Origin: Chloroflexota bacterium
GTDB lineage: Bacteria; Chloroflexota; Limnocylindria; Limnocylindrales; CSP1-4
Length of the DNA stretch: 64,000 nucleotides
Assembly (NCBI GenBank): GCA_039931975.1
Contig: JBDTQW010000002.1
Location: forward strand, 3,452-67,451
Direction of reading: 5' to 3'
The notes under the pieces were generated by a model. It did no database searches. It was not told where the DNA came from and was given only the letters and a program-made list of their open reading frames with translations. Of the stretch, positions 45,465-63,926 are shown piece after piece; within the stretch, counting starts at the first letter, position 1, and every line of letters starts with the position of its first letter. A program made the position numbers and the translations under genes.

Positions 45465-46597
45465 GTGCTCTCCTTTTCGAGCGGGACAACTAGCCGAACC
45501 ACCGTTCCGGCGTCCGGACGAGATGACACTTCCAGCGCGGCGCCGATGAGCTCGGCGCGCTCACGCATGAACTGAAGACCGAAGTTGCGCCGGCTACGGC
45601 TGGCAGCCGCCCCGACGTCGAAGCCCAGCCCGTCGTCGCGGACCTCGACGGTCCATGCGCCGTCCTCGAGCCGGGAGACGATGCTGGTCCGCGTCGACTT
45701 GGCGTGCTTGCGCACGTTATGGAGCGCTTCCTGGACGACCCGCAGGACGACTGTCTGCTGGGCGTCGGCGAGCATGTCGGCCGGCGCCTGGAGGTCGGTC
45801 TCGACGGTGCTGTCGGACAGCGCCGCCATCGTCTCGGCCGCATCGACGATCGAGCCATCGAGACCGAGGTCGTCGAGGAGCGGAGGGCGAAGCTGGCTGA
45901 TGAACGTTCGGACGTCGCCGAGCTCGCGGCGGAGCAGTTCGCGCATGAAGCGCAGCTCCGTCCGGGCGAGGCGCGGGTCGCCGTCCATCACCCGATCGAT
46001 GTACTCGACCTGGAAGATCGCGTTGGAGAGGGCCTGAGCCGGTCCATCGTGGATCTCCTGGGCAAGCCGGGATCGCTCGGCTTCCTGGGCCTCGACGATG
46101 CGCATCTCGACATCGTGCGGCCGATCCGTTCCGTGTCCTTCCGGAACGAGGCTGGCGTCGCCACGCTCGAGGAACAGCCAGGTGCTCTCCAGGCTGCGGT
46201 GGGCCAGCTCGAAGCGAGCCAGCTCGGCCTGATGGGCGCCGACGTCAATCTCGAGCCGCTCGAGATCCGAGCGCAGGGCATTGACCTCGGCATCGTCCGC
46301 GCCAGCTTCTGCCGCCCCGGCTGCGCTGACGCGGCCCGATTCGGCGCGGGCATCGGCCTCCGCGAGCTGCTCGCGGCGAGGCCGACGCACGAGGGCATCG
46401 AGCTCCTCGCGGAGGGCCTGGTAGCGGCCAAGCTCTTCGAGGTGGGCGGCCCGGTAGCGTCCGGCCACGGCATCGAGACTGTTGGCGGCATAAGCCAACG
46501 CGGCCTTTGCCTCAGCGTGGAGCTCGTCGAAGCGGCCATCCCGAGCATCGCCCACTCGCGTGCCGTCCATGTCGCCCGAGTATAGGGGTCCGGGCAT
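45461..46597 (-). CDS. Soluble DegS-like HisKA_3 histidine kinase (canonical catalytic domain)
   Basis: The H-box is LAQEIHDGPAQAL, the N-box QEALHNVRKHA, G1 RDDGLGFD and G2 GLQFMRERAELIGAAL. No TM segment. The ATG at 46597 overlaps the upstream GT gene stop (TGATG), and the stop overlaps the RR start (ATGA). An alternative ATG lies at 46570. Confidence 0.9.
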   Translation of the reverse strand: MPGPLYSGDMDGTRVGDARDGRFDELHAEAKAALAYAANSLDAVAGRYRAAHLEELGRYQALREELDALVRRPRREQLAEADARAESGRVSAAGAAEAGADDAEVNALRSDLERLEIDVGAHQAELARFELAHRSLESTWLFLERGDASLVPEGHGTDRPHDVEMRIVEAQEAERSRLAQEIHDGPAQALSNAIFQVEYIDRVMDGDPRLARTELRFMRELLRRELGDVRTFISQLRPPLLDDLGLDGSIVDAAETMAALSDSTVETDLQAPADMLADAQQTVVLRVVQEALHNVRKHAKSTRTSIVSRLEDGAWTVEVRDDGLGFDVGAAASRSRRNFGLQFMRERAELIGAALEVSSRPDAGTVVRLVVPLEKEST

Positions 46598-48234
46598 CAG
46601 GGACAGCCGATCTCGAAGACCAGGGTCTTCGCTAGGGAGCGAGCATCCGCCGGGTCGCTCGGCGGAGGGCCGAGGTCGAGCGCGTGGAAGCAGTCGGCCC
46701 CTGGCACCGCCGATGCCAGGACCTCCGGCCATCGCCCATGGTCGTCGTCGGCCATGACCAGGTACCGCGTGCCGCTGAACGCAGCCGCCAGCTCCATCAC
46801 GGCGGCCGGGCTCTCGTCGGGCAGGGCCAGAGTACGGATCCGCAGCGCTTCGGCTAGCCAGATCGGGAAGTCAGTCACGACCGGCCCGGAGGTGGCATCC
46901 AGGGGGCGGCCGATGGCGGCCATCCGTTCGGCCAACAGCTCGTAGCGCCGGGCGACCTGGGCGGATTGGTCGGCGTACCCGGTGAGGGCGACGCTGAACA
47001 GCATCGCCGAGGCGATCGTCAGCGTGGGTCCAAGCCAGGCCACCGGCCGGGTCCAGCCGCGCCAGGCACCGGCGCGCTCGACCAGCGCATCGAGGGCCAA
47101 CAGGGCGCTGACGATGAGCAGCACGTGGATCGCCCCGGCAGCGTGGAGGAAGGTGCCCCACGTCGTCGCCACCGGGAAGAGCAGGCTGGTGACCAGGAAG
47201 CTGACGATGGCGAACATGACCAACGGTCGAAGGGAGCGCGCCCGGCCGGTCCACGGCAGCGCCGCTAGTCCGATCAGCGAGACCGGGAAGCCCGGGGCCA
47301 GGAGGACGTTTGCAAGGTTGTGCCACATCCCCTCGATCCGGAGCTCGAACAGGCGGGCCGGACCGATGGCCAGGTAGCGGGCCAGCGTCGGCGGGTCCCT
47401 GAAGGCAAAGATGTCGAAACCGGTGACCGACAGGGCGTTGGCCAACGCCTGGCCAGGCAACGGGTTGCCGAAGGCGATCCAGTCGCGGATCGCCCAGGGA
47501 GCGAAGACGAGCACGGCGACCGCGGCCGGGACCAGGACCAGGCCGCGGCGCAGTCCACGTGCGCCCTGCCACCACGCGAGACCGGCCCAGGTCAGGGCGA
47601 TGAGGGCGGCCTCGTTGCGGGTCAGGGCCGCCAGGCCCAGGACGAGACCCAGCCCGAGGAGGCGACCGTCGCGCAGGAGGCTGCCCGATGGCGGTGCGCG
47701 CAGCAGGCGGGTCATCAGCAGGGTCCCGGTCAGGGCCAGGGCGGCGAAGGGCATGGTCGAGTCGGGCAGTGCGCCGAACAGGACGAGCGGGAGGAAGACC
47801 GCGGCGGTCAGGCCGGTCCCGATGGCCAGCGTCCGTGCTCGGCCGACCGGGAAGTCGCGCTCCTCGGCGACATCCGCGGCGAGGCGCCAGGCGAGGACGG
47901 GCACGAGCGAGCCGACCAGGACGGCTGAGATCTTGGCCGCGTCAAACGTCGGACCCAGGAGAGCCATCGCCGGCAGCGTCAACACGCTTGGCAGCGGCAG
48001 CCAGACCTCGAACGCAGGCCGCGGGAAGACGAGCGGTGGGGTCTGGAAGCTCCAGATCGCGTCACTGACCAGCCCTCTGCCCTCGATCACGTTGCGGGCC
48101 ACACCGACGTAATAGGCCGTGTCCTCGGGGGTCGGGAAAGCGAGGCTGGAGGCGAACACGACCCGGACGGCCAGTGCCGCCACGAAGACCAACCCGGCGC
48201 TCAGCCACGCCTCGCGCGCCGTCATCGGACGCAT
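46597..48234 (-). CDS. GT-C fold membrane glycosyltransferase, PMT_2/GT39-like, paralogue A
   Basis: 545 aa and polytopic. The first-loop acidic motif is PTPEDTAYYVGVARN. It has a C-terminal soluble domain. Confidence 0.7.
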   Translation of the reverse strand: MRPMTAREAWLSAGLVFVAALAVRVVFASSLAFPTPEDTAYYVGVARNVIEGRGLVSDAIWSFQTPPLVFPRPAFEVWLPLPSVLTLPAMALLGPTFDAAKISAVLVGSLVPVLAWRLAADVAEERDFPVGRARTLAIGTGLTAAVFLPLVLFGALPDSTMPFAALALTGTLLMTRLLRAPPSGSLLRDGRLLGLGLVLGLAALTRNEAALIALTWAGLAWWQGARGLRRGLVLVPAAVAVLVFAPWAIRDWIAFGNPLPGQALANALSVTGFDIFAFRDPPTLARYLAIGPARLFELRIEGMWHNLANVLLAPGFPVSLIGLAALPWTGRARSLRPLVMFAIVSFLVTSLLFPVATTWGTFLHAAGAIHVLLIVSALLALDALVERAGAWRGWTRPVAWLGPTLTIASAMLFSVALTGYADQSAQVARRYELLAERMAAIGRPLDATSGPVVTDFPIWLAEALRIRTLALPDESPAAVMELAAAFSGTRYLVMADDDHGRWPEVLASAVPGADCFHALDLGPPPSDPADARSLAKTLVFEIGCP

Positions 48235-49910
48235 CGCGGGTCGTCGGCAGCGAGGCAGACGGGAAAGAGGGCCGCGTCCGAGCCGCTCCCGCTGGGCGGT
48301 GCTCCGGCGGCACCGAGCGCCGTGGCGGCACCCAGCGCCCCATCGGCCCCGGCCGGGATCGTGGCAGGTTCACGCCAGATGGCCCGGCCGATCCAACTCG
48401 CGCGAGGCGCGTCGTCCTGCAGGAGACCGGCCAGCGCCTGAACCGTGTCGCGCCGCTCGACCAGCAGCCACCGTGCTCCGTACGCCTGGGCGACGCGCTC
48501 GACGGTAGCGATGGCGTCGTCCGGGGCGACGACTCCCGGATGGCCGGTCCAGTACTTCACGCCTCCGGTGTCGAGGCTCATGACCACGTCGCTGGGCGCG
48601 GCCCCCGCCTGGGCCAGGGCGGTCCCGGCGGCGACCTTGATGGCGCGCTCCTCCGCCCAGGCGGTCCGGGTCGCGAACGAGAACCCGATCCCGACGAGCA
48701 TGGTCAGCACGACGGCGCCGCCGACGAATACCCGGCTGGCCTCAGCCGCATCCCAGCCCCGACGCCGGAGAGCGACCCAGGCGACGAGGCCGACGACGCC
48801 CTCCAGGGCCAGGATCGAGGCCTGCGGGGCGAGGGCGATCGCCGAATGGATGAACGTGCCGTTCGGCACGTGGACCGCCGAGATCAGCGCGGAGAACGCG
48901 AACAGGATGGCGGCATAGACGAAGAACGGGGTGAAGTACGGTGAGCTGCGGCGCAGCCAGGCGCCCACGACGATCAGTGGCGCGAGGACCAATCCCGCGA
49001 CCAGGACGACAAAGCTGATGACCGCCTGCGCCAGACCAACGAGCCGGCTCGAGACGAGCGGGCCGAGGCCCTGGCCGAGGAAGGTCGACAGGGTCGGGTG
49101 ACCCTCGATCGAGTTCATCTCGGCGAGCGATCGGATCCACAGGATCCGGCCCGACGCCGACGACGGCGAGATCGAGCCGAAGACGGCCAGCTGACGCGCC
49201 CACCAGGGCCCCATGACCAGCACGAACAGGCCGAGCGAGGCGATCGCCGACCACCACGGCAGGACTGCCGGCCGAGCCGTCCGCCAGGCCCGGTACCGAT
49301 GCCACAGGAAGAGCAGCCCGAGTGCGGCCCCCACCAGGACGCCGTCGTTCCGGGCCAGCATCGCCAGGCCGACCAGCGCGCCCGCCGCGGCGAACGCCCG
49401 GGCGTCTCCCTTGAGGCCGCGGGCGCCCAGCCACAGGGCGCCGAGGACGATCGGCTGGTAGAGCGAGAAGTTGTCCGGCTGGGCCATGAATACCACCGCC
49501 GCAGGGACCGCCACGAGCAGACCCGCCCCGAGCGCGACATCGCGCCGCGCTCCGGCCTCGGTGGCGAAGGCCCAGGTCATCGGCGCGGCGAGCGAGCCGA
49601 TCAGGGCGAAGGGCAGGGCCGACGCCCAGGCGGTGGGGCCAAGAACGGCCAGGAACGGGACCTGGACCAGCGCGGCCAGCGGCATCCAATGGGCGTTGCT
49701 GGGGATCGGCAGGGTCGGTTGGGCCGGGATCGAGCCGCCAAGGTCGACGAAGGTCCAGATGAAGTCGATGTTGAATCCGTGCCCGGCCTGGAGGGCCCGA
49801 GCGACGTTGACGTAATAGTAGGAATCAACGTAGGCCGGGTCCGGATATTGAGCGATCAAGACCAGCCGCACGAGCGCGGCGAACGCGTAGAGACCGAGGG
49901 CGGTTCGCAT
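48222..49910 (-). CDS. GT-C fold membrane glycosyltransferase, PMT_2/GT39-like, paralogue B
   Basis: 562 aa and polytopic. The first loop is PDPAYVDSYYYVNVARAL. It has a C-terminal soluble domain and overlaps paralogue A by 13 nt. Confidence 0.7.
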   Translation of the reverse strand: MRTALGLYAFAALVRLVLIAQYPDPAYVDSYYYVNVARALQAGHGFNIDFIWTFVDLGGSIPAQPTLPIPSNAHWMPLAALVQVPFLAVLGPTAWASALPFALIGSLAAPMTWAFATEAGARRDVALGAGLLVAVPAAVVFMAQPDNFSLYQPIVLGALWLGARGLKGDARAFAAAGALVGLAMLARNDGVLVGAALGLLFLWHRYRAWRTARPAVLPWWSAIASLGLFVLVMGPWWARQLAVFGSISPSSASGRILWIRSLAEMNSIEGHPTLSTFLGQGLGPLVSSRLVGLAQAVISFVVLVAGLVLAPLIVVGAWLRRSSPYFTPFFVYAAILFAFSALISAVHVPNGTFIHSAIALAPQASILALEGVVGLVAWVALRRRGWDAAEASRVFVGGAVVLTMLVGIGFSFATRTAWAEERAIKVAAGTALAQAGAAPSDVVMSLDTGGVKYWTGHPGVVAPDDAIATVERVAQAYGARWLLVERRDTVQALAGLLQDDAPRASWIGRAIWREPATIPAGADGALGAATALGAAGAPPSGSGSDAALFPVCLAADDPRCVR

Positions 49911-49919
49911 CGCCGGTGC

Positions 49920-49928: not shown

Positions 49929-50010
49929 CCGGGCACCCCGGACTCAGCCCGGTACGAATCACCCATGACCGGCGCCATCCGGGGCGGTATTGAGCCGCGT
50001 TCGCGGGGGG

Positions 50011-50025: not shown

Positions 50026-50874
50026 ATGAGCCTCTCGAACCGGTTCTGGACCCTGACCCCACCCTCGCCGATCGTGCGTCGCGCGCTGCGCGACGGACTC
50101 GCCTTCGCTGGCCTCGCCTTCGCCGCGTACCTGTTTCTCGTGGTGGCTCCGACGGCCGGGACGTTCGGCTTCGATGCCTATGCCTACTGGTCGCTCGACC
50201 TGACCAACCCGTACGCCGTACCTGCCGGGACCTTCGGTGCGTTCACCTACACGCCGGTGATCGCGCGGCTGTTCGCTACGTTCGGCCTGCTGAGCTGGCC
50301 GGCCTTCGTCTGGCTCTGGTCGGCCCTCCTGGTCGCGACCGTCGTGTGGCTCGGTTGGCGGAACGCGCTCCTGCTCTTGGCCTTCCCACCGGTCGCGCTC
50401 GAGCTGTACCACGGCAACGTCCACCTCCTCATGGCGGCGGCGATCGCACTCGGTTTCCGCTATCCAGTCGCCTGGTCGTTCGTGCTGCTGACCAAGGTGA
50501 CCCCGGGAGTCGGCCTGGTCTGGTTCGCCGTCCGCCGGGAGTGGCGACCTCTGGCGATCGCACTCGGCTCTACCGCGGTGGTCGTCGTGGCTTCTCTGCT
50601 GATCGACGGCAGCCTATGGATAGCCTGGCTCGACGAGAGCATCCTCAAGACGGCCAGCGGCGCGCCATTCAACCAGTTCTCGATCGCGATCCCGCTCCTC
50701 GTCCGGTTGCCGGTGGCGGTGCTGCTCGTCGCCTGGGGCGCTCTGACCGACCGGCGCTGGACGGTCCCGGTGGCAGCGACCCTGGCCCTGCCCATCCTGT
50801 GGCCCAGTGGCTTGGCCGTCCTCGCCGCGCTGTGGCCGATCCTCCAGCGCCGGCCGGAGCTCGAGCCAGCCTGA
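50026..50874 (+). CDS. DUF2029/GT87-like polyprenol-phosphate-sugar-dependent glycosyltransferase
   Basis: 282 aa and polytopic. Seen: GFDAYAYWSL...FTYTPVIARLF and ...LTKVTPGVGLVWF. Confidence 0.65.
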   Translation: MSLSNRFWTLTPPSPIVRRALRDGLAFAGLAFAAYLFLVVAPTAGTFGFDAYAYWSLDLTNPYAVPAGTFGAFTYTPVIARLFATFGLLSWPAFVWLWSALLVATVVWLGWRNALLLLAFPPVALELYHGNVHLLMAAAIALGFRYPVAWSFVLLTKVTPGVGLVWFAVRREWRPLAIALGSTAVVVVASLLIDGSLWIAWLDESILKTASGAPFNQFSIAIPLLVRLPVAVLLVAWGALTDRRWTVPVAATLALPILWPSGLAVLAALWPILQRRPELEPA

Positions 50875-50884: not shown

Positions 50885-52015
50885 TCAGCGCTGCGGCTGG
50901 GGCTGCGGGGCGTCGACCGGGTCGGGCTCGAGCCAGGCTGGCCAGCGCTCACCGGCGGCCAGGGCGCCGCTGACCAGGGCGACCCCCAGCCACAGACCGA
51001 CCAGCGTGTAGCTGGCGATGCACAGCGCCGCGACGAGGGCCAGTTCGCGTCGGACGGTCAGCATCGCCGGCAGGAGCGTGAGCACCCCGAACATGCGCAG
51101 GCTCGGGCTGCCGACGATCATCAGGATCCCCAGCCACGCCGCGGCCCGGTGACGTGGGAGGAAGAAGGTGGCGACCATCGTGCCCAGCGCGAGCGCCAGG
51201 CCGGCGCCAGCCGGCAAGCCTCGCGCCAGGCCGGCCCCACCAAGGATCCAGGCCGGATCCGCGGCGCGTCCGAGCTGGGACAGCCAGTCGAGCCATAGCG
51301 CAGGCCCCGTCAGCGCCAGGCTGAGGATCATCGTGACGCCGAGGGTGGTGAGACCCAGCAGCGCCGCTCCCGGCCGGCGCCGCACGAGGAGGATCCATGG
51401 GTGCGCCTGTGATGGCTTGACGGCACCGTTGACGACCGCGAGCAGCCCGTCCACCCAGGCCGGCCGGGCGTCCTCACCGGGGACCCGCTCGAGCGGATGG
51501 AACCCGGCTCGCGCCGGCGGCTTGAACAGAAGACCGACAAATGCGGCGAAGAGGATGACCTGCACGTTCCCGCCGAGCAGCCCCTCGAGGAACGGCGGCC
51601 AGAGGAGGACGAACGGGACCCAGGGCCACGGGATCGCCAGTCGCCGGCACGTCCAGATCGCCACGGCCACCCCGACGGCCAACCATGCGGCGACCACAAG
51701 CCCGGCGGGCAGGCGTGCCAGGGGCGCGATGACCGGGAGCACGAACGGCGGGTACAGGAACGGCAGATCGGGTCCGACCGGGGCTTGAAAGCTGGCGGCC
51801 AGATACGGCTGACCGCCATCCAGCCATCGTCGTGCGGCGCGCAGCGGTATCTCGACGTCGACTCCGACCGGATACCCGACGAGGAGGTCCTTCACGGCTA
51901 GGACCACCGCGATCCCGGTAAGGATCCATAGCCCGCACCGGAGCAACCTGTCGGGCATGCCCGACGCGTCCAGGGCGCCCGCTACCGGCGATCGTCCGGC
52001 CATGGTCGGTGGCAT
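50885..52015 (-). CDS. DUF2029/GT87-like glycosyltransferase
   Basis: 376 aa and polytopic. Seen: VDVEIPLRAARRWLDGGQPYL...FLYPPFVLPVIAPLA. It is convergent with the previous gene across a 10-bp gap. Confidence 0.65.
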   Translation of the reverse strand: MPPTMAGRSPVAGALDASGMPDRLLRCGLWILTGIAVVLAVKDLLVGYPVGVDVEIPLRAARRWLDGGQPYLAASFQAPVGPDLPFLYPPFVLPVIAPLARLPAGLVVAAWLAVGVAVAIWTCRRLAIPWPWVPFVLLWPPFLEGLLGGNVQVILFAAFVGLLFKPPARAGFHPLERVPGEDARPAWVDGLLAVVNGAVKPSQAHPWILLVRRRPGAALLGLTTLGVTMILSLALTGPALWLDWLSQLGRAADPAWILGGAGLARGLPAGAGLALALGTMVATFFLPRHRAAAWLGILMIVGSPSLRMFGVLTLLPAMLTVRRELALVAALCIASYTLVGLWLGVALVSGALAAGERWPAWLEPDPVDAPQPQPQR

Positions 52016-52022
52016 CCGGCCG

Positions 52023-52120: not shown

Positions 52121-53377
52121 ATGCAGCCAATGCGCGACCGGACGTCGGGCTCGGACCCGGCCGAGACCGATCGTCGAACACTGGCATTCGGCCTGGGGGC
52201 CGTCGCTCTCTCGTTCCTCATCTACGTGCTGGCCAGCCTTCGATTCGATGCTGGTCGGCCTGACTTCTTCTACCTGGCGGACGCCTTCCTGCACGGCCGC
52301 CTGTGGCTGGACCGGACATTCGGGCCGTGGGACAACGTGATCATCGGCGACCGCGTATACGTCCCGTTCGCCCCGTTCCCGGCCATCGCCTTCACTCCGC
52401 TCGTCGCGTTGATCGGACCGGTCGCGGCTGATCGTTGGGAGCAGATCATCGACGCAGCTATCGCTGCGATCGATGTCGGCCTGTGCTGGTGGCTGATGGG
52501 TCGGCTGGGGGTGCGGACCGTGGTCGAACGGATCTGGCTCGTCTTCCTGCTCGGGTTCAGTACCCAGATCCTGTGGGTGACGACCCGCGGCGGCGTGTGG
52601 CACACGGGCCACCTCATCGCGATGCTGCTCACCTTGACGGGTCTGGTCGAGACGTTCGGCCGGCGACGCCCGTGGCTCCTCGGCCTGTTGGTTGGAGCCG
52701 CCTTCCTGACCAGGGCGCCGCTCGCTCTCGCCGCCCCGTTCTTCGCCTGGGTCGTGGCCGACCGGGAAGGGGTGCGCTCATTATTCGCTCCCTCATCGTG
52801 GCCGTGGCGTTCGTGGCTGGTCTATGGCATCGCCATCGCCCCGGCGGTCTTGTTCGCGCTGTGGTACAACGCGGTGCGGTTCCGATCGCCACTAGAGTCG
52901 GGGTATGGGCTGGCGTCGCTCCCCGAGTTCCTGGCGGTGGAGCGCGCTCAAGGCCTCTTCTCGATCAGCCACCTCAACGCGAACATCGACTACCTGCTGC
53001 TCAAGCTGCCGAAGCTGTTCGAGAGCCGCCCCGACGGCTCGATCGCCTGGTTCCTGCCACCTCGACCGGACGGACTTGGCATGTCGATCCTGCTGACCAG
53101 CCCGGGCCTGCTCCTGGCGCTGCGGGCCGACTGGCGCTCGCGGATGACCATCGCCCTCGGGCTGACTGCCCTCGCCGTCCTGATCCCGAGCCTGCTCTAC
53201 TACGGCGGCGGGTGGCTTCAGTACGGCTACCGCTATGCGCTGGACTCCATCCCCTTCGTCATCGCGATGGTGGGACTTGCGGTCGCTCGCCATGGCCTCC
53301 CGGCCTGGGGCAAGGTGCTCATCGTGTTCGGCATGGTGATCAACGTGCTCGGGGTGTACTGGGCGTACAACCTCTGA
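52121..53377 (+). CDS. GT-C fold membrane glycosyltransferase (ArnT/PMT-like, family unassigned)
   Basis: 418 aa and polytopic. The first loop is PDFFYLADAFLHGRLWLD...DRVYVPFAPFPAIAF. Confidence 0.6.
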   Translation: MQPMRDRTSGSDPAETDRRTLAFGLGAVALSFLIYVLASLRFDAGRPDFFYLADAFLHGRLWLDRTFGPWDNVIIGDRVYVPFAPFPAIAFTPLVALIGPVAADRWEQIIDAAIAAIDVGLCWWLMGRLGVRTVVERIWLVFLLGFSTQILWVTTRGGVWHTGHLIAMLLTLTGLVETFGRRRPWLLGLLVGAAFLTRAPLALAAPFFAWVVADREGVRSLFAPSSWPWRSWLVYGIAIAPAVLFALWYNAVRFRSPLESGYGLASLPEFLAVERAQGLFSISHLNANIDYLLLKLPKLFESRPDGSIAWFLPPRPDGLGMSILLTSPGLLLALRADWRSRMTIALGLTALAVLIPSLLYYGGGWLQYGYRYALDSIPFVIAMVGLAVARHGLPAWGKVLIVFGMVINVLGVYWAYNL

Positions 53378-56884: not shown

Positions 56885-56894
56885 ACTGCGCCAG

Positions 56895-57731
56895 ATGGAC
56901 GAGCTGACCGGTACGGCGGCGTTCGAGTCGCTCACGCTCGTCCTGCCGGCCTACAACGAGGAGACGCGCCTCGGGCCGGCGCTCGACGAGCTGTTCGGCT
57001 ACCTGCGAAGGCGCGGCGGTCCTCCACGCGAGGGCGCTCCCGCCTCGGGTAACCTGCCCGACGCGATCCAGGTCCTGGTCGTCGACGATGGCAGCACCGA
57101 TGCCACGGCCGATCTCGTCCGTGCCCGGCCGGAGGCCGCCGCCGGAGTCCGCGAGGTCGGCTCGGCCAACCCGTGGCGGGGTGCCTGGCTCGAGCTCCTG
57201 TCGGTGCCCCACGGCGGTAAGGGCGCTGCAGTGCGGGCGGGCATGCTCGCGGCCGGCAGCGATGCGATCGTCTTCACGGACGCCGACATGGCCACCCCGC
57301 CCGACCAGATCCCGGGCCTGGTGGCTGCCCTGGGGTCAGCCGATGTGGCCCTCGGGAGCCGGGTCCAGCCGGACGGGTCCGACATGCGCCGGACCCAGCC
57401 CGGGTTGCGGCGGCTCCTGGGCAAGGTATTCCACGCCCTGGCGGCCGTCTGGGTGACCGGTCCTGTACGTGACACGCAGTGCGGCTTCAAGGGCTTCTCG
57501 CGAGCAGCAGCCCACGACCTGTTCTCGGCACAGCGGATCACCAGCATCGTCTTCGACGTCGAGCTCATCTATCTTGCCCGCCGGCGGGGCTATCGCCTGG
57601 CGGTCGTCCCGATCCAGTGGTTCGACCGTCGCGGGTCGCGGATGCAGGCCAGCGCCGGGCTCGCCGCGCGGGTCGCCTGGGATCTGTTCCGGATCCCGCT
57701 GATCCACCGCCGGGTGTCTCGGCGCAGGTGA
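56895..57731 (+). CDS. GT2 polyprenol-phosphate mannose/glucose synthase (Ppm1/DPM1-like)
   Basis: LTLVLPAYNEE, VLVVDDGSTDAT and FTDADMATPPDQIP (the DxD motif). No TM segments. Typical length for a dolichol/polyprenol-P-sugar synthase. Confidence 0.8.
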   Translation: MDELTGTAAFESLTLVLPAYNEETRLGPALDELFGYLRRRGGPPREGAPASGNLPDAIQVLVVDDGSTDATADLVRARPEAAAGVREVGSANPWRGAWLELLSVPHGGKGAAVRAGMLAAGSDAIVFTDADMATPPDQIPGLVAALGSADVALGSRVQPDGSDMRRTQPGLRRLLGKVFHALAAVWVTGPVRDTQCGFKGFSRAAAHDLFSAQRITSIVFDVELIYLARRRGYRLAVVPIQWFDRRGSRMQASAGLAARVAWDLFRIPLIHRRVSRRR

Positions 57732-58858
57732 CCACGGGCCGGCTGTCGCGCCTCCGCGGCGCGCCCGTGCTCGGGCGGGTGCTGCCGGTCGTGGCGGTCG
57801 CCGTTGCCGTGATGGTCGTGGGTGCGGTCCTCGCGAATGCCGGCCCGACCATGGGCTTCGATGCGCGGGCCTATCTCGATGCCGCTCGACGGCTGCTCGA
57901 TGGCGGGGTCCTCTACGACACGTCCATCGACCAGGCGGGCGCCGCCGGGCTGTACTACTACTCGCCGCCGTTCACCCTCCTGGCCGTTCCGTTCGCCCTG
58001 CTGCAGGCTCCGCTCGACATCGCCGGCTGGACCGCGGCATTGCTCGCGGCCTTTCTCGTGGGCGTCGCCGTCCTGCCGGTCAGCCGGCCCGTCCGCTGGC
58101 TCATCGTGCTGTTGGCGGGGCTTTCCTGGCCCTTCGCCTACGCGATCAAGCTGGGACAGGTCGGCCCGATCCTGTTCCTGTGCTTCGCCATCGGGTGGCG
58201 CTGGATGGATCGACCGGTGCGGCTGGGCGCGGCCATGGCCATCGGGACGATCGTCAAGCTCCAGCCCGGCATCCTGTTCGTCTGGGCGATCCTTACGAGG
58301 CGCTGGGCGGCCGTCGGCGTCGGGCTCGTCGTTCTCGGCGCCGCCGCCGTCATCGCCACCGTGGTCTGCGGAGTCGACGCCTGGGCGGCATGGCTGACCA
58401 TCCTGCGCTCGATCAGCGCCCCGATCACGACGCCGCACAACTTCACCCCGGGGGCCGTGGCCTACCAGGTTGGCCTCGGCGAGGGGCAGGCGACGGCGAT
58501 CCAGGCCGTCAATACCCTCGCGGTCCTGGGCATCGTCCTGTGGGCCGCCGTACGGACGAGCCCCACCGTCGGCTACCTCACCGCAGCAACGGCCAGTCAG
58601 CTCTTGTCACCCGTGTTGTGGGACCACTATGCGATGCTCCTGCTCCTGCCGACGGCCTGGCTCCTGGAGCGTGGCCGCTGGTGGTCGGCGGTCATCCCGC
58701 TGTCGACCTCGATCGTTCTCATCTGGCTCCCGCCAGTCGTCTACCCGATCGCCTTCTGGGTCGCCCTGCTGGCGCCCATCGCGATCGATGCGCGTCCGGT
58801 CAGGCGCTTGCGCGCGCAACGACCTGGACTCGATCCGGTGCTATCCTCGGAGACGTGA
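57728..58858 (+). CDS. DUF2029/GT87-like glycosyltransferase
   Basis: GFDARAYLDAARRLLDGGVLY...YYYSPPFTLLAVPFA and ...IGTIVKLQPGILFVW. The GTG at 57728 overlaps the GT2 stop (GTGA). Confidence 0.7.
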   Translation: MTTGRLSRLRGAPVLGRVLPVVAVAVAVMVVGAVLANAGPTMGFDARAYLDAARRLLDGGVLYDTSIDQAGAAGLYYYSPPFTLLAVPFALLQAPLDIAGWTAALLAAFLVGVAVLPVSRPVRWLIVLLAGLSWPFAYAIKLGQVGPILFLCFAIGWRWMDRPVRLGAAMAIGTIVKLQPGILFVWAILTRRWAAVGVGLVVLGAAAVIATVVCGVDAWAAWLTILRSISAPITTPHNFTPGAVAYQVGLGEGQATAIQAVNTLAVLGIVLWAAVRTSPTVGYLTAATASQLLSPVLWDHYAMLLLLPTAWLLERGRWWSAVIPLSTSIVLIWLPPVVYPIAFWVALLAPIAIDARPVRRLRAQRPGLDPVLSSET

Positions 58859-60078
58859 CCAGCGCCCCCTTCGAGGTGGAGCCCGCCTGTCCGGGGGGCC
58901 CCCGCACGGCCCCGAGCCCGACTCCAGCCGCCCGACAACGCCATCTGGTGGCGCTCCGCCGCCCATTCGATTCCATCGGTACCTCGACTTGGGACGCCCT
59001 CGCCGATCGCAATCCGTGGGCGACGCCGTTCGCCCGGTGGGCTTTCCATCGCTCGTGGTGGGACGCCTACGGGGCGAGCGCCCACGACGAGACCATGGTC
59101 GTGCTCGACGCCGACCGCAGCTCCGATGCCGAGCCGATCGCGATCGTGCCGCTGATGCACCGTCACGAGGTCGAGCCGACCGATGCCCTCGGGCAGACCA
59201 CGCTCCGCCACGGCTCCGCGCTGCCCCTGATCCCCGTCGCACCGACCGCCAAGGCCGTCTTCTTCGGGGCGTCGTACCACGCCGACTATGCGACCGCCCT
59301 CGCCGCGCCGGAGGACCTCGACGCGGTGGCTGCTGCCGTCGTCGAGGCACTCGCCGGTCCGCCGGTTCCAGATGACGCCCACCCGGCGCCGTGGGACGTC
59401 GTGGATCTGCGCCGCCTGCGTTGCGGTGACCCCACCGCCAGCGCGCTGTCGGCGGCGTTCGGCCAGCGTGCTACCGAGCAGGCCTGGACCGTGGATCTCG
59501 AGCGTGAGGACGTCTGCCCGGTGACGACCATCCCGGCCGAGGTCTACGATCTCGATGGCTTCCTGGCCACCCTGGGCAAGAAGGAGCGTCACGAGATCCG
59601 GCGCAAGGCCCGCCGGGCCGAGGCCGCCGGCGAGGTGGCCTTGACCGAGTCGGTCGAGCCGCTGACCGACCTCCCCGCGTTCATCGACCTCCACCAGCGC
59701 CGCTGGGGCGATGCCGGCCTGTTTCGGCCGACTCCCGGTGGCGACGCGGGCCGGCGCTTCGTCCGCGAGCTGTTCGAGCGGTTCGGTCCCGACGGCCCGG
59801 CCAAACTGTGCTTCCTGACGGTCGGCGGGCGTCGGATCGGGGCGGGCATCACGTTCGAGTACGACGACACCATGGCCTATTACAACGCGGGCATCGACCC
59901 CGACGCCCGCGACCTGTCGCCGGGTGTGGTCATGGTCGCGAAGTACGTCGAGCGGGCGATCGCAACTGGCCGCCATCGACTCGACTTCCTGCGCGGCAAC
60001 GAGCCCTACAAGTACGAGTGGGGCGCGGTGGACGAACCGATCCAGCGGCTGCTCGTCCGACGCAGCGTCGACCGGTGA
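58855..60078 (+). CDS. CelD/BioF2-like GNAT-fold (Acetyltransf_6, FemAB-like) protein
   Basis: WDALADRNPWATPFARWAFHRSWWDAYG... and ...LDFLRGNEPYKYEWGA are hallmarks of the CelD/BcsL-like family. The GTG overlaps the upstream stop (GTGA). Confidence 0.65.
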   Translation: MTSAPFEVEPACPGGPRTAPSPTPAARQRHLVALRRPFDSIGTSTWDALADRNPWATPFARWAFHRSWWDAYGASAHDETMVVLDADRSSDAEPIAIVPLMHRHEVEPTDALGQTTLRHGSALPLIPVAPTAKAVFFGASYHADYATALAAPEDLDAVAAAVVEALAGPPVPDDAHPAPWDVVDLRRLRCGDPTASALSAAFGQRATEQAWTVDLEREDVCPVTTIPAEVYDLDGFLATLGKKERHEIRRKARRAEAAGEVALTESVEPLTDLPAFIDLHQRRWGDAGLFRPTPGGDAGRRFVRELFERFGPDGPAKLCFLTVGGRRIGAGITFEYDDTMAYYNAGIDPDARDLSPGVVMVAKYVERAIATGRHRLDFLRGNEPYKYEWGAVDEPIQRLLVRRSVDR

Positions 60079-60088
60079 GCGTCGACCG

Positions 60089-61288
60089 ATGAGCGCCCCG
60101 GCGCCCGGCGACCCCTGCCTCGAGCCCGTCGAGCGACCAGTCATCCCGGGTGGCCGGATCCGGGTCGTCGAGGTCCTCGCCACGGGCACCAACGGGGGCG
60201 CCCAGGAGCATGTCCTCGGGCTCCTGACTCGGATCGATCCGACCCGCTACGACGTCCACGTCCTGTCGCTTTCGCCGGGGAGCACGGTCCGCAAGCTCCA
60301 GCGAAACGGCATCTCCGTCACGGTCATCGACGAGCCCGACGACGCGATCGCGACCGGCGCCGTGGCCGCGCTCCTGGCCGAGCTCCGACCCGAGATCGTG
60401 CACAGCCACATGTACCGGGCCGAGCTCGTCGGGACGCGCGCGGCGATCGCCCTGGGCGAGATCGGGCGGCCTCGGCCGTACATCGTGTCGACGGTCCATT
60501 CGAGCCGGATCCGCTCGGAGGAGGACCGCCGGGTCCTGCGCCTCTTGACCCCGCGGATCGATCGCCTCATCGCGGTGTCGCGCTCGATTGTGGAAAAGCT
60601 CCACCACGAGGGTCGTGACACCGCCCCGATCTCGCTCATCCACAGCGGCGTGGACCTGGAGCGATACGACCACCAGGAGCCCTGCTGCACCCTGCGCGAG
60701 GAGTACGACCTGCCGAGCGAGGGTCCGATCGTGGGGGTCGTCGCCAGGCTCGAGCCCGAGAAGGGCCACCCGACCCTGCTCGAAGCGTGGCCGTCCGTCC
60801 TGGCCGCCGTGCCGGACGCGACGTTGCTCGTCGTCGGGGAGGGCAGCCGGCGGGAAGCCCTCGAGGCGCTAGCTCACGAGCTGGGCGTGGCCGAGAGGGT
60901 GGTCTTCACCGGTCGACGCGATGACGTCCCGGCGGTCACGGCGGCACTCGACGTAGCGGTCCTCCCGTCCTATCGCGAAGCGCAAGGGCTGACCATCCTC
61001 GAGGCGATGGCGCTGTCGCGCCCGATCGTCGCCTCGAACGTGGGAGGCATCCCCGAGATGGTCGAGGACGGGATCACCGGCCTGCTGGTGCCAGCGCACG
61101 ATGCCGACGCCCTGGGTGCGGCCATCGTCCGTCTGCTCCGCGATCACCCCCTGGCCGACACCCTGGGCCGAGCCGGTCATGATCTCGTCCACGACAAGTT
61201 CTGCATCGAGCGGATGGTTGCGGCCGTCGAGCAGATCTACGACGAAGGTGCCCGCACCCTGCGCCTGACTGAGGTCGCGGCGGGGTAG
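60089..61288 (+). CDS. GT4 (GT-B fold) glycosyltransferase
   Basis: The C-terminal domain is ...VVFTGRRDDVPAVTAALDVAVLPSYREAQGLTILEAMALSRPIVASNVGGIPEMVEDGITGLLV, the EX7E-type motif. Confidence 0.85.
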   Translation: MSAPAPGDPCLEPVERPVIPGGRIRVVEVLATGTNGGAQEHVLGLLTRIDPTRYDVHVLSLSPGSTVRKLQRNGISVTVIDEPDDAIATGAVAALLAELRPEIVHSHMYRAELVGTRAAIALGEIGRPRPYIVSTVHSSRIRSEEDRRVLRLLTPRIDRLIAVSRSIVEKLHHEGRDTAPISLIHSGVDLERYDHQEPCCTLREEYDLPSEGPIVGVVARLEPEKGHPTLLEAWPSVLAAVPDATLLVVGEGSRREALEALAHELGVAERVVFTGRRDDVPAVTAALDVAVLPSYREAQGLTILEAMALSRPIVASNVGGIPEMVEDGITGLLVPAHDADALGAAIVRLLRDHPLADTLGRAGHDLVHDKFCIERMVAAVEQIYDEGARTLRLTEVAAG

Positions 61289-61426
61289 CGCGTGGCCTTG
61301 GGACATATCCGCGGATAGTCTCGCCCGGCGATTGCGAGCAAGCTCTGGCCCAGGACCGGGTCTAGAGTGGGCGTCCGCCGAGGTCTGTAGTACTTCAGGG
61401 TGGTCGGGGAGGTGTCGCCTGGCGGC

Positions 61427-61432
61427 TAGCAT
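61427..61432 (+). promoter_or_regulatory. -10-like TAGCAT, 7 nt upstream of the ATG at 61440
   Basis: ggcggcTAGCATcgccgcgATG with no SD. It lies in a 151-bp gap after the GT4 gene. Confidence 0.4.
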
Positions 61433-61439
61433 CGCCGCG

Positions 61440-62954
61440 ATGGCACGACTGTCGGACGCCACGTCGGCACATGGCCGCAGGCTCCTCCTGACCTTGCCCG
61501 AACTCTGGGCGGTGCTGGCCGTCTTACTGCCGATCGTGGGAGCTCTCCTGGCCACGATCTCGACCGTCGACCTGGCCTATCACGTGCGCGCCGGCGGCAT
61601 CATCCTCGACCGCGGGACGCTGCCATCACCAGATGCGTTCACCTTCACCGCCGGCGGGCAACCGTGGGTCGACCAACAGTGGGCAGCCCAGGTCGCCCTC
61701 GCCGTCGTCCACCAGCTCGGTGGGTGGAGCTTGCTGGCCGTGTTGCGCGCCGGGTTGGTCGGCCTCGTGGCGTTGCTTGTGTTCCGAGCCTGTCGATCGG
61801 CCGGAGCGGGCACCCGGGTGGCGGCCTGGCTGGCCCTCGCTGGTTTCGGTGTCGGGATGGTTGCGCTGGGTTTGAGGCCCCAGTTGTTGGGGATGGTCCT
61901 GTTCGCCCTCACCCTAACGATCCTCGCCGGACGCCACCGACGCCAGGACCTTCTCTGGGCGATCCCGATCGTGGTCATGGTCTGGGCCAACGTCCATGGC
62001 TCGTTCTTCCTGGGGCCTGTGGCTGTCATCGTCGCCGCCATCCAGGACGCGGTCGAAGGCCGTCCCGGCCATCGTCGCGTGCTTGCCATCGCCCTGATCA
62101 GCCTGGGTACCAGCTTCGTCAGTCCGTATGGGCCAGCGGTGTGGACGTATGCCGTGGGCATCGCCGCGGACCCGACGATCCGGCGGCTCATCACTGAGTG
62201 GCAGCCGACCTCGCCGCTGTCGTTCGCCGGTGCGGCGTTCTACGCGTCAGTCGGTGGTGTCGTCGTGTTCCTCGCGGTCGTAACCCGCCGGGCCGGTCCG
62301 GGTCATCTCCGGCGTGCGTGGCCGACGGTCGCCTGGCTCATCCTGCTCGCGGCGATCGGGGCATTCGCCGAGCGGGGGGTCGCGTGGTGGTCGATCGCCG
62401 CGCCCGTCGCCGTCGCCGAACTCATCGGCCGCCGTCCGGCCGCAGGCAACCCCGTGACCGCACAGTCCCCCTCGGCGGGTGTCGCCCCGGCGTCGGGGAG
62501 CCTCATCGCGACCGGGATCGTCGGAATCCTGATCGTTGCCATGATCGGCCTCCTGCCGGTCTGGCGCGGCGGCGATGCGCTGTACGGACCCAACGGACTG
62601 CTGACGGATGCGCCGCGAGCTATCACCGAGACCGTCCTAGCCGAGGCCAAGCCCGGTGATCGGATCTGGAATGCTCAGCGCTGGGGCTCCTGGCTGGAAT
62701 TCGCGGCGCCGGCCGCTACTGTCGCGGTCGACTCGCGGATCGAGCTCATCCCGGCCGCCGCTTGGGCCGACCACCTCGCGCTGTCAAGCGGCGCATCGAA
62801 CTGGGCCGCGATCCTCGATCACTGGGACGTGCAGATGGTGGTCGCATCGACCAGCGAGCAGGAGGCGCTCATCCCGCTCCTCCGAGTCTCGCAGGATTGG
62901 CATCTAGCGCGCGACGACCCGGACGGCGTTGTCTTCGTCCGGGTCCGGCCCTGA
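61440..62954 (+). CDS. Large polytopic membrane protein, probable GT-C-type glycosyltransferase or glycan polymerase (family not recognised)
   Basis: 504 aa with about 12 TM segments. Seen: DLAYHVRAGGIILDRGTLPSPDAFTF...QPWVDQQWAAQV and WANVHGSFFLG, plus a C-terminal soluble domain. The 3' end overlaps the convergent gene by 51 nt. Confidence 0.45.
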   Translation: MARLSDATSAHGRRLLLTLPELWAVLAVLLPIVGALLATISTVDLAYHVRAGGIILDRGTLPSPDAFTFTAGGQPWVDQQWAAQVALAVVHQLGGWSLLAVLRAGLVGLVALLVFRACRSAGAGTRVAAWLALAGFGVGMVALGLRPQLLGMVLFALTLTILAGRHRRQDLLWAIPIVVMVWANVHGSFFLGPVAVIVAAIQDAVEGRPGHRRVLAIALISLGTSFVSPYGPAVWTYAVGIAADPTIRRLITEWQPTSPLSFAGAAFYASVGGVVVFLAVVTRRAGPGHLRRAWPTVAWLILLAAIGAFAERGVAWWSIAAPVAVAELIGRRPAAGNPVTAQSPSAGVAPASGSLIATGIVGILIVAMIGLLPVWRGGDALYGPNGLLTDAPRAITETVLAEAKPGDRIWNAQRWGSWLEFAAPAATVAVDSRIELIPAAAWADHLALSSGASNWAAILDHWDVQMVVASTSEQEALIPLLRVSQDWHLARDDPDGVVFVRVRP

Positions 62955-63926
62955 CCGACGCGAGGCTTCGAGCTCCCGAGTCATTGCGCCTGCGGCCTCG
63001 GATCGGACCCAAACGACCGGGACGATCGCGGCCATCATCGCCAGCGCGTCGAGCCACAGCGTCGGCGACGCTACGACGATGGCCACGATCAGGAGCGGCT
63101 CGCCGATCCGCGGCGTCAGCCGGCCTGCGATGACCGTCAGCACGAGGCCCGCCACCGCGCGTACTAGGTAGGGGATCGGAACCAGACCCGAGACGTCGCC
63201 CGGGCCACGCCCACGCATGGCGTCCACGAAGGCGGCCCACGCGCCGGGGTCGACGATGCCGCTGAGCGCGACGATGGCCAGCCCCAGCGCCACCGCGATC
63301 ATCGCGTCGCGCCACCTGCCTCGGACCAAGAGATACACGATCCCAAGGCCCGGTGCGAGCTTGACGATCGCACCGATCGCGAACATCCACGGCCAGCGCA
63401 GGATGGCCAGGGCGACGATCACGGCCAGGACCAAGTGGACGTTGCGAAACCAGAGCTCGACCGCCACGGGCACGAACGCGACCAGCGCCAGGGCGACGAG
63501 CGGACGACCGCGTCCGAGCCATAGCAGGCAGGCGAGGAGAAGGCCGGTCCACGCCCAGCTGAACTGCGTCGAGGACAGGAGGGCCGAGACTGGAGCCACG
63601 ACCTGGGCGAGCGGCGGCGGATACCAGTAGGCGTACGGGGTCACGGCCGTGGCGGTCGGGTCGTAGAGCGGCGCACCGCCGAGCAGCCGCTGGCCGGCCA
63701 GCCAGTAGGCATGCTCGTCTTGTGGGCTGGCCCAGCGGTTCACTGCAACCACCAGGAGCAGGCATCCGCCGACAGCCGCGAGGACCAGGAGAGCGGGCGC
63801 AGGGAGGCGCAGCCCGCGGACCGCGATCGGCTTCGTGAGGGTGCTCCGGACGGCTTGCGCCGCCGTGCCCAACCTACAGCCTCGTCGAGGCCCAGTACCG
63901 CTCGGCGAAGCCGGGAACCCCGCCAA
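62904..63926 (-). CDS. DUF2029/GT87-like glycosyltransferase
   Basis: QDEHAYWLAGQRLLGGAPLYD...YAYWYPPPLAQVVAPV and ...IGAIVKLAPGLGIVYLL. The track start is a TTG at 63926. An in-frame TTG at 63872, 2 nt after the upstream stop, is equally plausible. Confidence 0.65.
   Translation of the reverse strand: MAGFPASPSGTGPRRGCRLGTAAQAVRSTLTKPIAVRGLRLPAPALLVLAAVGGCLLLVVAVNRWASPQDEHAYWLAGQRLLGGAPLYDPTATAVTPYAYWYPPPLAQVVAPVSALLSSTQFSWAWTGLLLACLLWLGRGRPLVALALVAFVPVAVELWFRNVHLVLAVIVALAILRWPWMFAIGAIVKLAPGLGIVYLLVRGRWRDAMIAVALGLAIVALSGIVDPGAWAAFVDAMRGRGPGDVSGLVPIPYLVRAVAGLVLTVIAGRLTPRIGEPLLIVAIVVASPTLWLDALAMMAAIVPVVWVRSEAAGAMTRELEASRRSGPDPDEDNAVRVVAR

Follow-up and report, generated by a model that had tools for sequence, protein, structure and literature searches.

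Nine GT-C glycosyltransferases and a putative polyprenyl-phosphate-sugar synthase in a conserved locus of Candidatus Limnocylindria, with Flp pilins or other surface proteins as possible acceptors

The question raised here is which molecule a bacterium would serve with nine membrane glycosyltransferases encoded side by side. The genes lie in a stretch of 64,000 nucleotides from the genome of an uncultured soil Chloroflexota bacterium (GenBank assembly GCA_039931975.1, contig JBDTQW010000002.1, positions 3,452–67,451; hereafter the window), where 13 consecutive coding sequences (CDS) between positions 46597 and 63926 encode nine polytopic proteins of the GT-C class, a soluble GT2, a GT4, a GNAT and a membrane fusion protein. 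We conclude that the locus encodes machinery for outer-face glycosylation, in which the GT2 is translationally coupled to a GT87 enzyme and eight more GT-C proteins surround this pair. For the acceptor our preference is tentative and falls somewhat short of even confidence: a system dependent on polyprenyl-phosphate sugars that would act most likely on the Flp pilins of the adjacent Tad pilus, or on other surface proteins.

Membrane transferases and the putative donor synthase

The 13 genes, named here by their first coordinate, are as follows (TM, transmembrane segment; aa, residues).

46597..48234, minus strand: GT-C, paralogue of the PMT_2 protein, 545 aa; ~8 TM by hydropathy; C-terminal soluble region of ~130 aa; PEDTAYY after TM1
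48222..49910, minus strand: GT-C of the PMT_2 family, 562 aa (PF13231, 4.9e-8, above the gathering score); C-terminal soluble region of ~145 aa; YVDSYYY after TM1
50026..50874, plus strand: short GT87 (DUF2029) GT-C, 282 aa (PF09594, 1.8e-12, 48.0 bits); GFDAYAYW after TM1
50885..52015, minus strand: GT87 GT-C, 376 aa (PF09594, 1.1e-11, 45.4 bits)
52121..53377, plus strand: sequence-orphan predicted GT-C, 418 aa, without a soluble domain (AlphaFold2 model and Foldseek); RPDFFYLADAF after TM1; core gene
53406..54485, plus strand: PIG-V-like (Mannosyl_trans2) GT-C, 359 aa (PF04188, 1.8e-7); WDGWWY motif
54482..56884, plus strand: MFS/SpeE-like fusion, 800 aa (MFS_1, 5.5e-9; Spermine_synth, 8e-4; NF037959, 2.5e-30); core gene
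56895..57731, plus strand: soluble GT2, polyprenyl-phosphate-sugar-synthase-like, 278 aa (PF00535, 8.6e-19, 68.5 bits); DDGSTD at 64, DAD at 129; core gene
57728..58858, plus strand: GT87 GT-C, 376 aa (PF09594, 4.3e-22, 79.4 bits); GFDARAYLDAARRLLDG motif; GTGA overlap with the GT2; core gene
58855..60078, plus strand: cytoplasmic CelD/FemAB-like GNAT (Acetyltransf_6), 407 aa (PF13480, 2.1e-31); core gene
60089..61288, plus strand: cytoplasmic GT4, 399 aa (Pfam GT4 domains, 1.6e-42); most conserved gene of the locus
61440..62954, plus strand: sequence-orphan predicted GT-C, 504 aa, with an extracytoplasmic alpha/beta C-terminal domain of ~120 aa (AlphaFold2 model and Foldseek); STVDLAYH after TM1
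62904..63926, minus strand: GT87 GT-C, convergent with 61440 (PF09594, 8.4e-12, 45.8 bits); QDEHAYWLAGQRLL motif

Frame analysis of G+C at third codon positions (GC3) supports all 13 CDS at these coordinates, so that the genes proposed in the earlier note on this DNA are genuine. Its reading of all nine polytopic proteins as GT-C also stands, by three routes. Six have Pfam GT-C matches above the gathering score (four GT87, one PMT_2 and one PIG-V-like; the threshold of PF09594 is 25 bits). A seventh, 46597, has no Pfam match and is a paralogue of 48222 (BLASTP, 28% identity over 521 aa, 4e-22). The last two, 52121 and 61440, are placed by structure prediction.

Neither 52121 nor 61440 has a match in Pfam, NCBIfam or the PDB, whether searched as a single sequence or as a profile. 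Searches of PDB sequences with 52121, 61440, 57728, 48222 and the alignments of the 61440 and 52121 families (A1 and A2, respectively) returned nothing, and profile–profile comparison found no similarity between A1 and A2, A2 and 53406, or A1 and 48222. All listed homologues of the two proteins are 'hypothetical' and lack a precomputed Pfam domain; 61440 itself is 100% identical to ABI628_00705, a protein annotated 'hypothetical' from a metagenome-assembled genome (MAG) at NCBI, and its relatives carry the name Candidatus Limnocylindrales. The AlphaFold2 models are of good quality for both 61440 (38-homologue alignment; pLDDT 86.8, pTM 0.88) and 52121 (37-homologue alignment; pLDDT 84.4, pTM 0.87). 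When the models are compared with the PDB by Foldseek, the top 19 matches of 61440 are exclusively GT-C enzymes (STT3 at 2e-6, DPY19, ArnT, AftA, AglB, PglB, ALG9 and AftB), and the top 21 of 52121 are all GT-C or GT-C-like (AglB at 2.4e-4, ALG12, PIG-U, AftD, ArnT with a query TM-score (TMq) of 0.51, ALG9, EmbB, Pmt4 and AftB). The top matches of both have a probability of 1.0 and TMq values of 0.40–0.55, and the predicted fold of both proteins is GT-C. They represent two GT-C families for which no sequence model exists, and that of 61440 is very large, with 1,869 cluster representatives at E<=1e-30 and 25,056 at E<=1e-3.

An Asp or Glu lies 1–20 residues past the first hydrophobic segment in all nine proteins, on a topology drawn from hydropathy and the positive-inside rule only. 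The acidic or aromatic motifs singled out in the earlier note are each found directly after that segment, mostly behind a positively charged N-terminus. Conservation marks the same region: all members of the 61440 family share D44, which lies in STVDLAYH, whereas in the RPDFFYLADAF motif of the 52121 family D48 never varies and D54 hardly does. From the fold and the adjacent GT2, all nine enzymes would be expected to use a sugar donor linked to a lipid phosphate. Against PRK13375, the NCBIfam model for a characterized mannosyltransferase (cut-off 413 bits), the best GT87 scores are 42.2 for 57728 and 24.2 for 50885, and the sugar and linkage of the GT87 enzymes therefore cannot be assigned.

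The GT2 had been proposed to be of the Ppm1/DPM1 type, and its closest families are indeed polyprenyl- and dolichyl-phosphate sugar synthases: the best NCBIfam models are Dol-P-hexose transferase, AglJ, PgfS, ArnC and PpgS, and the PDB matches are ArnC (1e-7) and Pyrococcus DPMS (1e-6). All NCBIfam scores fall far below the equivalog cut-offs (e.g. 48 against 375 bits). Since no such threshold is approached, the donor sugar cannot be named. No TM segment is predicted in the GT2, the GNAT or the GT4.

What the analysis shows is to which families and folds the proteins belong, how far the genes are conserved and what surrounds them; from this we infer a scheme of action, including its donor, flippase, acceptor and order of steps. 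The GT2 would use a nucleotide sugar in the cytoplasm to charge polyprenyl phosphate; the product would then cross the membrane, perhaps with the MFS-like half of 54482 as its flippase; and the nine GT-C proteins, each with an acidic residue in the predicted first outer loop, would transfer sugars on the outer face. The beginning of the glycan, probably an amino sugar, may be made or modified by the GT4, the GNAT and a PIG-L deacetylase encoded at the end of the window. The GT-C proteins with a soluble outer domain (61440, 46597 and 48222) would start the chain, and the GT87 and PIG-V-like enzymes would lengthen it. A two-component system of the HisKA_3/LuxR type, located between the GT-C genes and the pilus genes, may control the whole array.

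The fusion protein 54482 has an MFS-like N-terminal half with ~12 TM segments and a C-terminal half with the spermidine-synthase fold. It passes the NCBIfam model 'fused MFS/spermidine synthase' (NF037959; 105.7 against 40 bits), to our knowledge a family without tested function, and its Spermine_synth score of 19.4 is below the gathering score of 22.9. A true spermidine synthase or other aminopropyltransferase is unlikely because the cofactor and active-site motifs are lost: when residues ~540–690 are aligned with Bacillus subtilis SpeE (1iy9), GGGDG is replaced by FGMGS and DSTEP by DPPPP, leaving both the GGGDG and the D-x-x-D/E-P motifs degenerate. The DPPP of 54482 recalls the (D/N)PPY motif of amino-methyltransferases. 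The MFS-like half is the sole transporter-like element of the locus and may be regarded as a candidate lipid-linked-sugar flippase.

Further upstream, a module at 28443–33057 encodes a PHP-domain protein, an LPG_synthase_TM 'flippase-like' protein (29378–30475) and a tenth GT-C (31411–33057; PMT_2 below threshold, weak Agl23 match). The flippase for the lipid-linked sugar of the main locus could come from this module. In 4 of the 39 related loci described below, a gene weakly related to the flippase-like one (median 33% identity) lies close to the cluster.

The structural matches of 61440 also bear on a different reading, which we consider quite improbable: a general glycosylation of surface proteins, an S-layer or a wall polysaccharide, without specificity for pili, in which an oligosaccharide would be assembled on a polyprenyl carrier with the participation of the GT4 and transferred to proteins or wall polymers by an STT3/AglB-like 61440. 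Polyprenyl-phosphate sugars would then serve to complete it outside the membrane, in the manner of the AglB/AglS system of Haloferax. In structure, 61440 comes closest to oligosaccharyltransferases (STT3 at 2e-6, AglB and PglB), the GT2 matches AglJ and Dol-P-hexose transferase, and the Agl23-like GT-C and the LPG_synthase_TM protein lie 15–20 kb upstream; moreover, relatives carry extra GT2, GT4, DegT, WbqC, GtrA and NDP-sugar dehydrogenase/epimerase genes, and a Bac_transf phosphoglycosyltransferase stands beside tadC in one locus of another lineage (L086). The TM-scores of 61440 to oligosaccharyltransferases are, however, just 0.4–0.55, the same as to ArnT and AftA; a WWDYG-type motif is not evident among the invariant residues of its C-terminal domain; and no priming phosphoglycosyltransferase is found among the scanned CDS of the window or in the Limnocylindria loci examined.

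Pilus genes beside the GT-C genes in two lineages

Two of the minus-strand GT-C genes open an unbroken run on that strand, in which 48222 and 46597 are followed by two kinase genes with a response regulator between them, three flp genes and a tad operon. The additional features of this run are as follows.

43395..46732, minus strand: HisKA_3 kinase, LuxR/NarL-type response regulator and second HisKA_3 kinase (Pfam)
42520–42813, 42925–43122 and 43214–43468, minus strand: three Flp-type pilin genes (G-x-x-EY plus hydrophobic motif; PF04964)
36345..42169, minus strand: tad (Flp pilus) operon encoding TadC, TadB, TadA/CpaF ATPase, CpaE and RcpC/CpaB (Pfam T2SSF twice, T2SSE, Response_reg with AAA_31/ParA, and RcpC)

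The last kinase gene (45461–46732) probably has its true start near 46600, and CpaE has an N-terminal receiver domain. The Flp_Fap scores (PF04964) of the pilins, 1.5e-5 and 1.9e-5, are below the gathering score. Two of the pilins are near-identical and have Ser/Thr-rich mature C-termini, GSQISTILSRVGTSI and GGQVSKILSTVGNSV; the third is divergent and ends in FFDDQVAAALDWLSSQLP. They are candidate substrates for glycosylation. Of the GT-C genes, 46597 comes closest to flp, at a distance of 3.1 kb; 61440 lies ~18 kb from it.

A second neighbourhood of this kind is seen when relatives of 61440 are traced through one genome per GTDB species. At least 580 species genomes encode such a relative, and the best 80 are mostly MAGs labelled Chloroflexota or Limnocylindrales. 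The lowest-ranked loci, mostly labelled Actinomycetota, have a 61440-family gene encoding a protein 40–43% identical to that of the window and lack the GNAT and the GT4. In eight of them (L033, L041, L069, L072, L078, L085, L086 and L087), the 61440-family gene is divergent from flp and only 0.2–1.1 kb from it, and in a ninth (L040) a tad operon lies alongside. Flanking the 61440-family gene in these outgroup loci are, on one side, a full tad operon with one to three flp genes and, on the other, two or three LuxR-type response regulators; L085 and L087 have an additional GT87 gene. The mature Flp tails are Ser/Thr-rich in the outgroup loci as well as in the window.

In L086, where the 61440-family GT-C gene abuts flp, a Bac_transf (WbaP-type) phosphoglycosyltransferase gene (580–2067, minus strand) is located directly beside tadC. 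This hints at en-bloc transfer of an oligosaccharide in that lineage.

The earlier note had listed pilin O-glycans as a mere alternative and cited no pilus genes. That ranking does not hold: with flp and tad bordering the locus, and with 61440-family genes next to flp in another lineage as well, a protein or pilin acceptor is at least as likely as a lipoglycan. We favour Flp pilins or other surface proteins over a lipid for three reasons: (i) flp/tad genes, LuxR-type regulators, GT87 and the 61440 family are neighbours in two separate lineages; (ii) 61440, 46597 and 48222 bear outer soluble domains, like GT-C enzymes that modify proteins; and (iii) TfpW of Pseudomonas aeruginosa is an earlier case of pilins being glycosylated from a monosaccharide on a lipid carrier.

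Several observations weigh against this preference. The tightest partners of 61440 in Limnocylindria are the GNAT and the GT4 and not flp, and the GNAT–GT4–61440 triad has no obvious role in pilin glycosylation. Nine GT-C proteins with a GT4, a GNAT and a PIG-L are many enzymes for a pilin of ~40 residues. BLASTP finds no similarity between the GT87 proteins encoded next to flp in L085 and L087 and those of the window, and Pfam scans of the window reveal no flippase of a recognized type, just as they reveal no priming phosphoglycosyltransferase. The Tad pilus of Caulobacter shows no glycan density by cryo-EM (PMC10710030), and in the literature we found no report of GT-C-dependent glycosylation of Flp pilins. 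Gene neighbourhood may reflect only a shared cell-surface theme or shared regulation.

A bolder version, which we think unlikely, would make the 61440-type family one of Flp-pilin glycosyltransferases or oligosaccharyltransferases common to Chloroflexota and the Actinomycetota-labelled soil lineages, expanded in Limnocylindria by the GT4, the GNAT, PIG-L, the polyprenyl-phosphate-sugar synthase and eight further GT-C proteins into a complex machine for pilin or surface glycans under two-component control.

Conservation and extent in Candidatus Limnocylindria

To compare gene content, the window proteins were run by tblastn against 39 species-level loci that have full 10-kb flanks. The counts of loci and the median identities are as follows.

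GNAT 58855: 38 of 39 loci, 64%
GT4 60089: 38 of 39 loci, 74%
MFS/SpeE fusion 54482: 33 of 39 loci, 61%
52121: 31 of 39 loci, 57%
GT87 57728: 30 of 39 loci, 58%
GT2 56895: 29 of 39 loci, 72%

The GNAT and the GT4 adjoin the 61440-type GT-C in 38 of the 39 loci, with the GNAT always beside the GT4. By comparison, 53406 is detected within the visible flank in nine, the number of GT87 copies ranges from 0 to 4, and PIG-L lies within 10 kb downstream in 24. Two gene orders predominate: 52121-53406-54482-GT2-GT87-GNAT-GT4-61440 in the window and its close relatives, and GT2-GT87-52121-54482-GNAT-GT4-61440 in more distant members. Directly downstream of the 61440 orthologue, 32 of the 39 loci encode an NDP-sugar dehydrogenase/epimerase fusion (81% median identity; e.g. 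L002:11612–14091) and 31 a second GT2 that is AglJ/PgfS/ArnC-like, i.e. resembling polyprenyl-phosphate-sugar synthases; neither gene occurs anywhere in the window. A PCMT-like gene, also downstream in relatives, was considered as a glycan methylase and rejected, being a bona fide protein-L-isoaspartate methyltransferase (263 bits against a cut-off of 188).

The wider arrangement is kept where more upstream DNA is available. In L088, L089 and L090, kinase, regulator and kinase genes are followed by 46597-like and 48222-like genes and then by a divergent GT87 and the core; the 52121 orthologues of these loci are 80%, 72% and 57% identical to the window protein, and the 46597 orthologue of L090 is 61% identical. 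L064 has a kinase beside the GT-C pair, plus the core. In L088 and L089, flp genes lie just beyond the kinase, in the same place and orientation as in the window. The apparent rarity of 46597 and 48222 (1 of 39) is an artefact of the 10-kb flank, and their status as rare accessories is rejected: they are present wherever upstream DNA is visible. The expectation that the cluster would be kept as a unit in relatives is borne out by the 39 loci together with L088, L089, L090 and L064.

In seven of the relatives, all MFD long-read MAGs (L001, L002, L006, L007, L059, L079 and L081), many orthologues are split into several tblastn fragments or called as fused or truncated genes, such as a 'GT2+GT87' protein of 545 aa and an Acetyltransf_6 protein of 121 aa. 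These are most likely frameshift errors of assembly and no real fusions.

The same comparisons bear on whether the genes serve one product at all. The 17 kb might instead hold several independent outer-face modules that share a donor pool and are held together by regulation or chance: 46597/48222 with the two-component system, GT2–GT87, GNAT–GT4–61440, and the extra GT87 genes. We judge this the least probable of the readings. It would account for the two main gene orders, which differ by clade, for the variable number of GT87 copies and the coming and going of 53406, 62904 and 50885, for the second GT2 and the dehydrogenase/epimerase that most relatives have and the window does not, and for the 61440 family standing alone with flp elsewhere. 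It sits poorly with the structure of the locus, in which successive genes from 53406 to 60078 overlap or abut (the GTGA overlaps reported at 54482, 57728 and 58855 are present, as is the 151-bp gap ahead of 61440), with the co-travelling of seven core genes in most of the 39 species, and with the arrangement kept in L088, L089 and L090. A '-10-like element' had also been described in the 151-bp gap, but a consensus scan gave 0 promoter-like sites across 44–64 kb, and the scan for promoters and terminators found nothing exceeding the expectation from shuffled sequence.

The term 'island', used for the region in the earlier note, is misleading. The G+C content of the locus (0.68–0.71) is equal to that of its flanks, with no shift across 46.6–64 kb, and that of the window overall (0.66–0.71) fits the class Candidatus Limnocylindria, which has a median G+C of 68.9% and a median size of 2.39 Mb (PMC10608941). 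The surroundings are those of a core chromosome, with genes for PBP2, RF1/PrmC, SHMT, the ATP synthase operon, MurA, MreB and HPF. Horizontal acquisition is rejected on the flank-like G+C and the class-wide synteny; what the region holds is the central part of a locus that belongs to the chromosome of Candidatus Limnocylindria (Chloroflexota) and is conserved across the class.

The locus extends past the window, since the latter ends within a further gene.

63877–64000, minus strand: 3' end of a PIG-L family deacetylase gene (last 41 codons, continuing past the window; tblastn, 83% identical to the C-terminal end of the orthologue in L084, PF02585)

In L084, the GT87 orthologue of 62904 directly adjoins the PIG-L stop codon. 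In the window, the TTG start annotated for 62904 (63926) falls within the 3' end of the PIG-L gene and is therefore probably too far upstream; by comparison with the L084 orthologue and the PIG-L stop, the true start is probably near 63875. On the other side, after the tad operon, lie genes for a double zinc ribbon protein that may be ComF-like (35218–35910, minus strand) and a ribosome hibernation factor (34502–35098, minus strand). Neither is glycan-related, which sets the lower boundary of the surface-structure region.

As reported earlier, the 13 CDS contain no typical Pfam family of Wzx/Wzy, ABC exporters or priming phosphoglycosyltransferases, and none was found in the other open reading frames of the window that were scanned.

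Known pathways and the lipid alternative

The GT4, the CelD/FemAB-like GNAT and the MFS/SpeE-like fusion are as first described, according to Pfam and NCBIfam. The GNAT has a weak pepcterm_femAB match (3e-4, below cut-off). The GT4 matches stp2 (8e-55), BshA (8e-38) and MshA (3e-32) in NCBIfam, each below cut-off, and BshA, MshA and PimB' are among its PDB matches. It contains no PIGA domain (PF08288) at E<=0.01, and a pairing with PIG-L of the type found in glycosylphosphatidylinositol (GPI) synthesis is therefore not seen. Together, the GT4, the GNAT and PIG-L form a classic set for transferring GlcNAc, deacetylating it and re-acylating the product, and probably build or tailor a primer. The suggestion that the locus works by stepwise extension on a pre-existing acceptor overlooks these enzymes.

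The main rival to a pilin or protein acceptor is a lipid. On that reading, the GT4 would place GlcNAc or another sugar on a membrane lipid, PIG-L would de-N-acetylate it and the GNAT re-acylate or aminoacylate it; after flipping, the GT87, PIG-V-like and other GT-C enzymes would use polyprenyl-phosphate sugar to extend the product to a surface lipoglycan similar to lipomannan (LM) or GPI. We regard this as possible but, on balance, unlikely. The enzyme set parallels both the mycobacterial pathway of phosphatidylinositol (PI) mannosides (PIM), LM and lipoarabinomannan (LAM), with its GT4, acyltransferase, Ppm1 and GT87, and the GPI core, with its PIG-A-type GT4, PIG-L, DPM1 and PIG-V, of which PIG-L and PIG-V are matched directly in Pfam; the likeness of the GT4 to MshA, BshA and PimB', the lack of a priming phosphoglycosyltransferase and the very high class-wide conservation of the GT4 (74%) and the GT2 (72%), suggestive of a housekeeping component of the envelope, agree with it. 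But the locus has no gene for a lipid anchor (PI synthase or a PatA-type acyltransferase), the GT4 lacks a PIGA domain and stays under all equivalog cut-offs, and a lipoglycan would leave unexplained both the 61440 family and GT87 beside flp without GT4, GNAT and PIG-L in the other lineage and the co-orientation of the locus with flp/tad. The choice of mannose, and of lipomannan, as a model is analogy only: no equivalog is reached, and relatives hold a second GT2 resembling polyprenyl-phosphate-sugar synthases and the NDP-sugar dehydrogenase/epimerase fusion.

Comparison with characterized systems places the locus beside several of them. It works like the LM/LAM, GtrABC/YfhO, TfpW and GPI-core systems, which combine a polyprenyl-phosphate sugar with GT-C enzymes, without qualifying as any one of them by equivalog score. 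The PIM–LM–LAM pathway of mycobacteria and corynebacteria (PimA/PimB' GT4, PatA, Ppm1 GT2, and PimE and MptC GT87) follows the same logic with partly the same families: cytoplasmic GT4 steps precede outer-face extension by GT87/GT-C enzymes from the polyprenyl-phosphate sugar of a soluble GT2. In contrast to the dispersed mycobacterial genes, those described here are clustered and belong to the phylum Chloroflexota; no PI synthase or PatA homologue is present, no equivalog score is reached, and the locus adds PIG-L, the FemAB/CelD-like GNAT, the MFS/SpeE-like fusion and the linkage to flp/tad. In the GtrA/GtrB/GtrC and CsbB/GtcA/YfhO systems, too, a GT2 supplies the polyprenyl-phosphate sugar that a flippase moves and a GT-C then attaches to a surface polymer, but the window has no GtrA-type flippase, it has many GT-C proteins for each GT2, and the GT4, the GNAT and PIG-L have no counterpart there.

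The likeness to the eukaryotic and archaeal GPI core (PIG-A, PIG-L, DPM1, PIG-M, PIG-V and PIG-B) consists of the Pfam matches to PIG-L and PIG-V, a GT4, a DPM1-like GT2 and several GT-C proteins, and the AlphaFold2 model of 52121 also resembles PIG-U. PIGA and PIG-M domains, an ethanolamine-phosphate transferase and the catalytic subunit of the transamidase are absent here, and convergence on the same classes of enzyme may be all that lies behind the resemblance. The exopolysaccharide loci of the PEP-CTERM/XrtA type likewise place an stp2-type GT4 next to a FemAB-family protein (8e-55 and 3e-4 for the window proteins, both below cut-offs), but the window contains no exosortase, PEP-CTERM protein or Wzx/Wzy.

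TfpW, the precedent for a pilin acceptor, is a GT-C whose gene lies next to pilA. Drawing on a precursor bound to a lipid carrier, it puts oligomers of D-arabinofuranose on pilins, and both its loop 1 and its large C-terminal domain are periplasmic (bioRxiv 10.1101/2020.04.19.049825). The Pa5196 enzyme both glycosylates pilin Ser/Thr residues and polymerizes the sugar on them, with the involvement of a small flippase and of donor synthesis in the cytoplasm (bioRxiv 10.1101/2020.04.19.049825). Its substrate is, however, a type IVa pilin and not Flp, no sequence similarity to it is detected, donor genes of the DprE1/DprE2 type are absent here, and the present locus has up to nine GT-C proteins and extra cytoplasmic enzymes. 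Literature searches on this cluster, on GT87 or GT-C proteins in Chloroflexi and on glycosyltransferases of Flp pilins gave nothing relevant, and no paper was found that connects the cluster in Chloroflexota or Limnocylindria, or any GT-C enzyme, with the glycosylation of Flp pilins.

Candidatus Limnocylindria are abundant bacteria of soil and freshwater with small genomes and almost no experimental biology. That 17+ kb devoted to outer-face glycosylation are conserved across the class suggests that a major glycoconjugate is present on the surface of these cells. The analysis also defines two GT-C families invisible to sequence models, one of them very large. Because a donor synthase, a candidate flippase, primer enzymes and many GT-C proteins are encoded together, the locus is useful for considering the evolution of LM/LAM-like or GPI-like pathways. 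Glycans on the pilins of other pilus types are relevant to adhesion and phage resistance, and the locus provides a testable link between GT-C enzymes and Flp/Tad pili, the glycosylation of which is essentially unexplored. If the 61440-type family does act on Flp pilins, as in the bolder version above, this would be the first dedicated glycosylation system for a Tad/Flp pilus.

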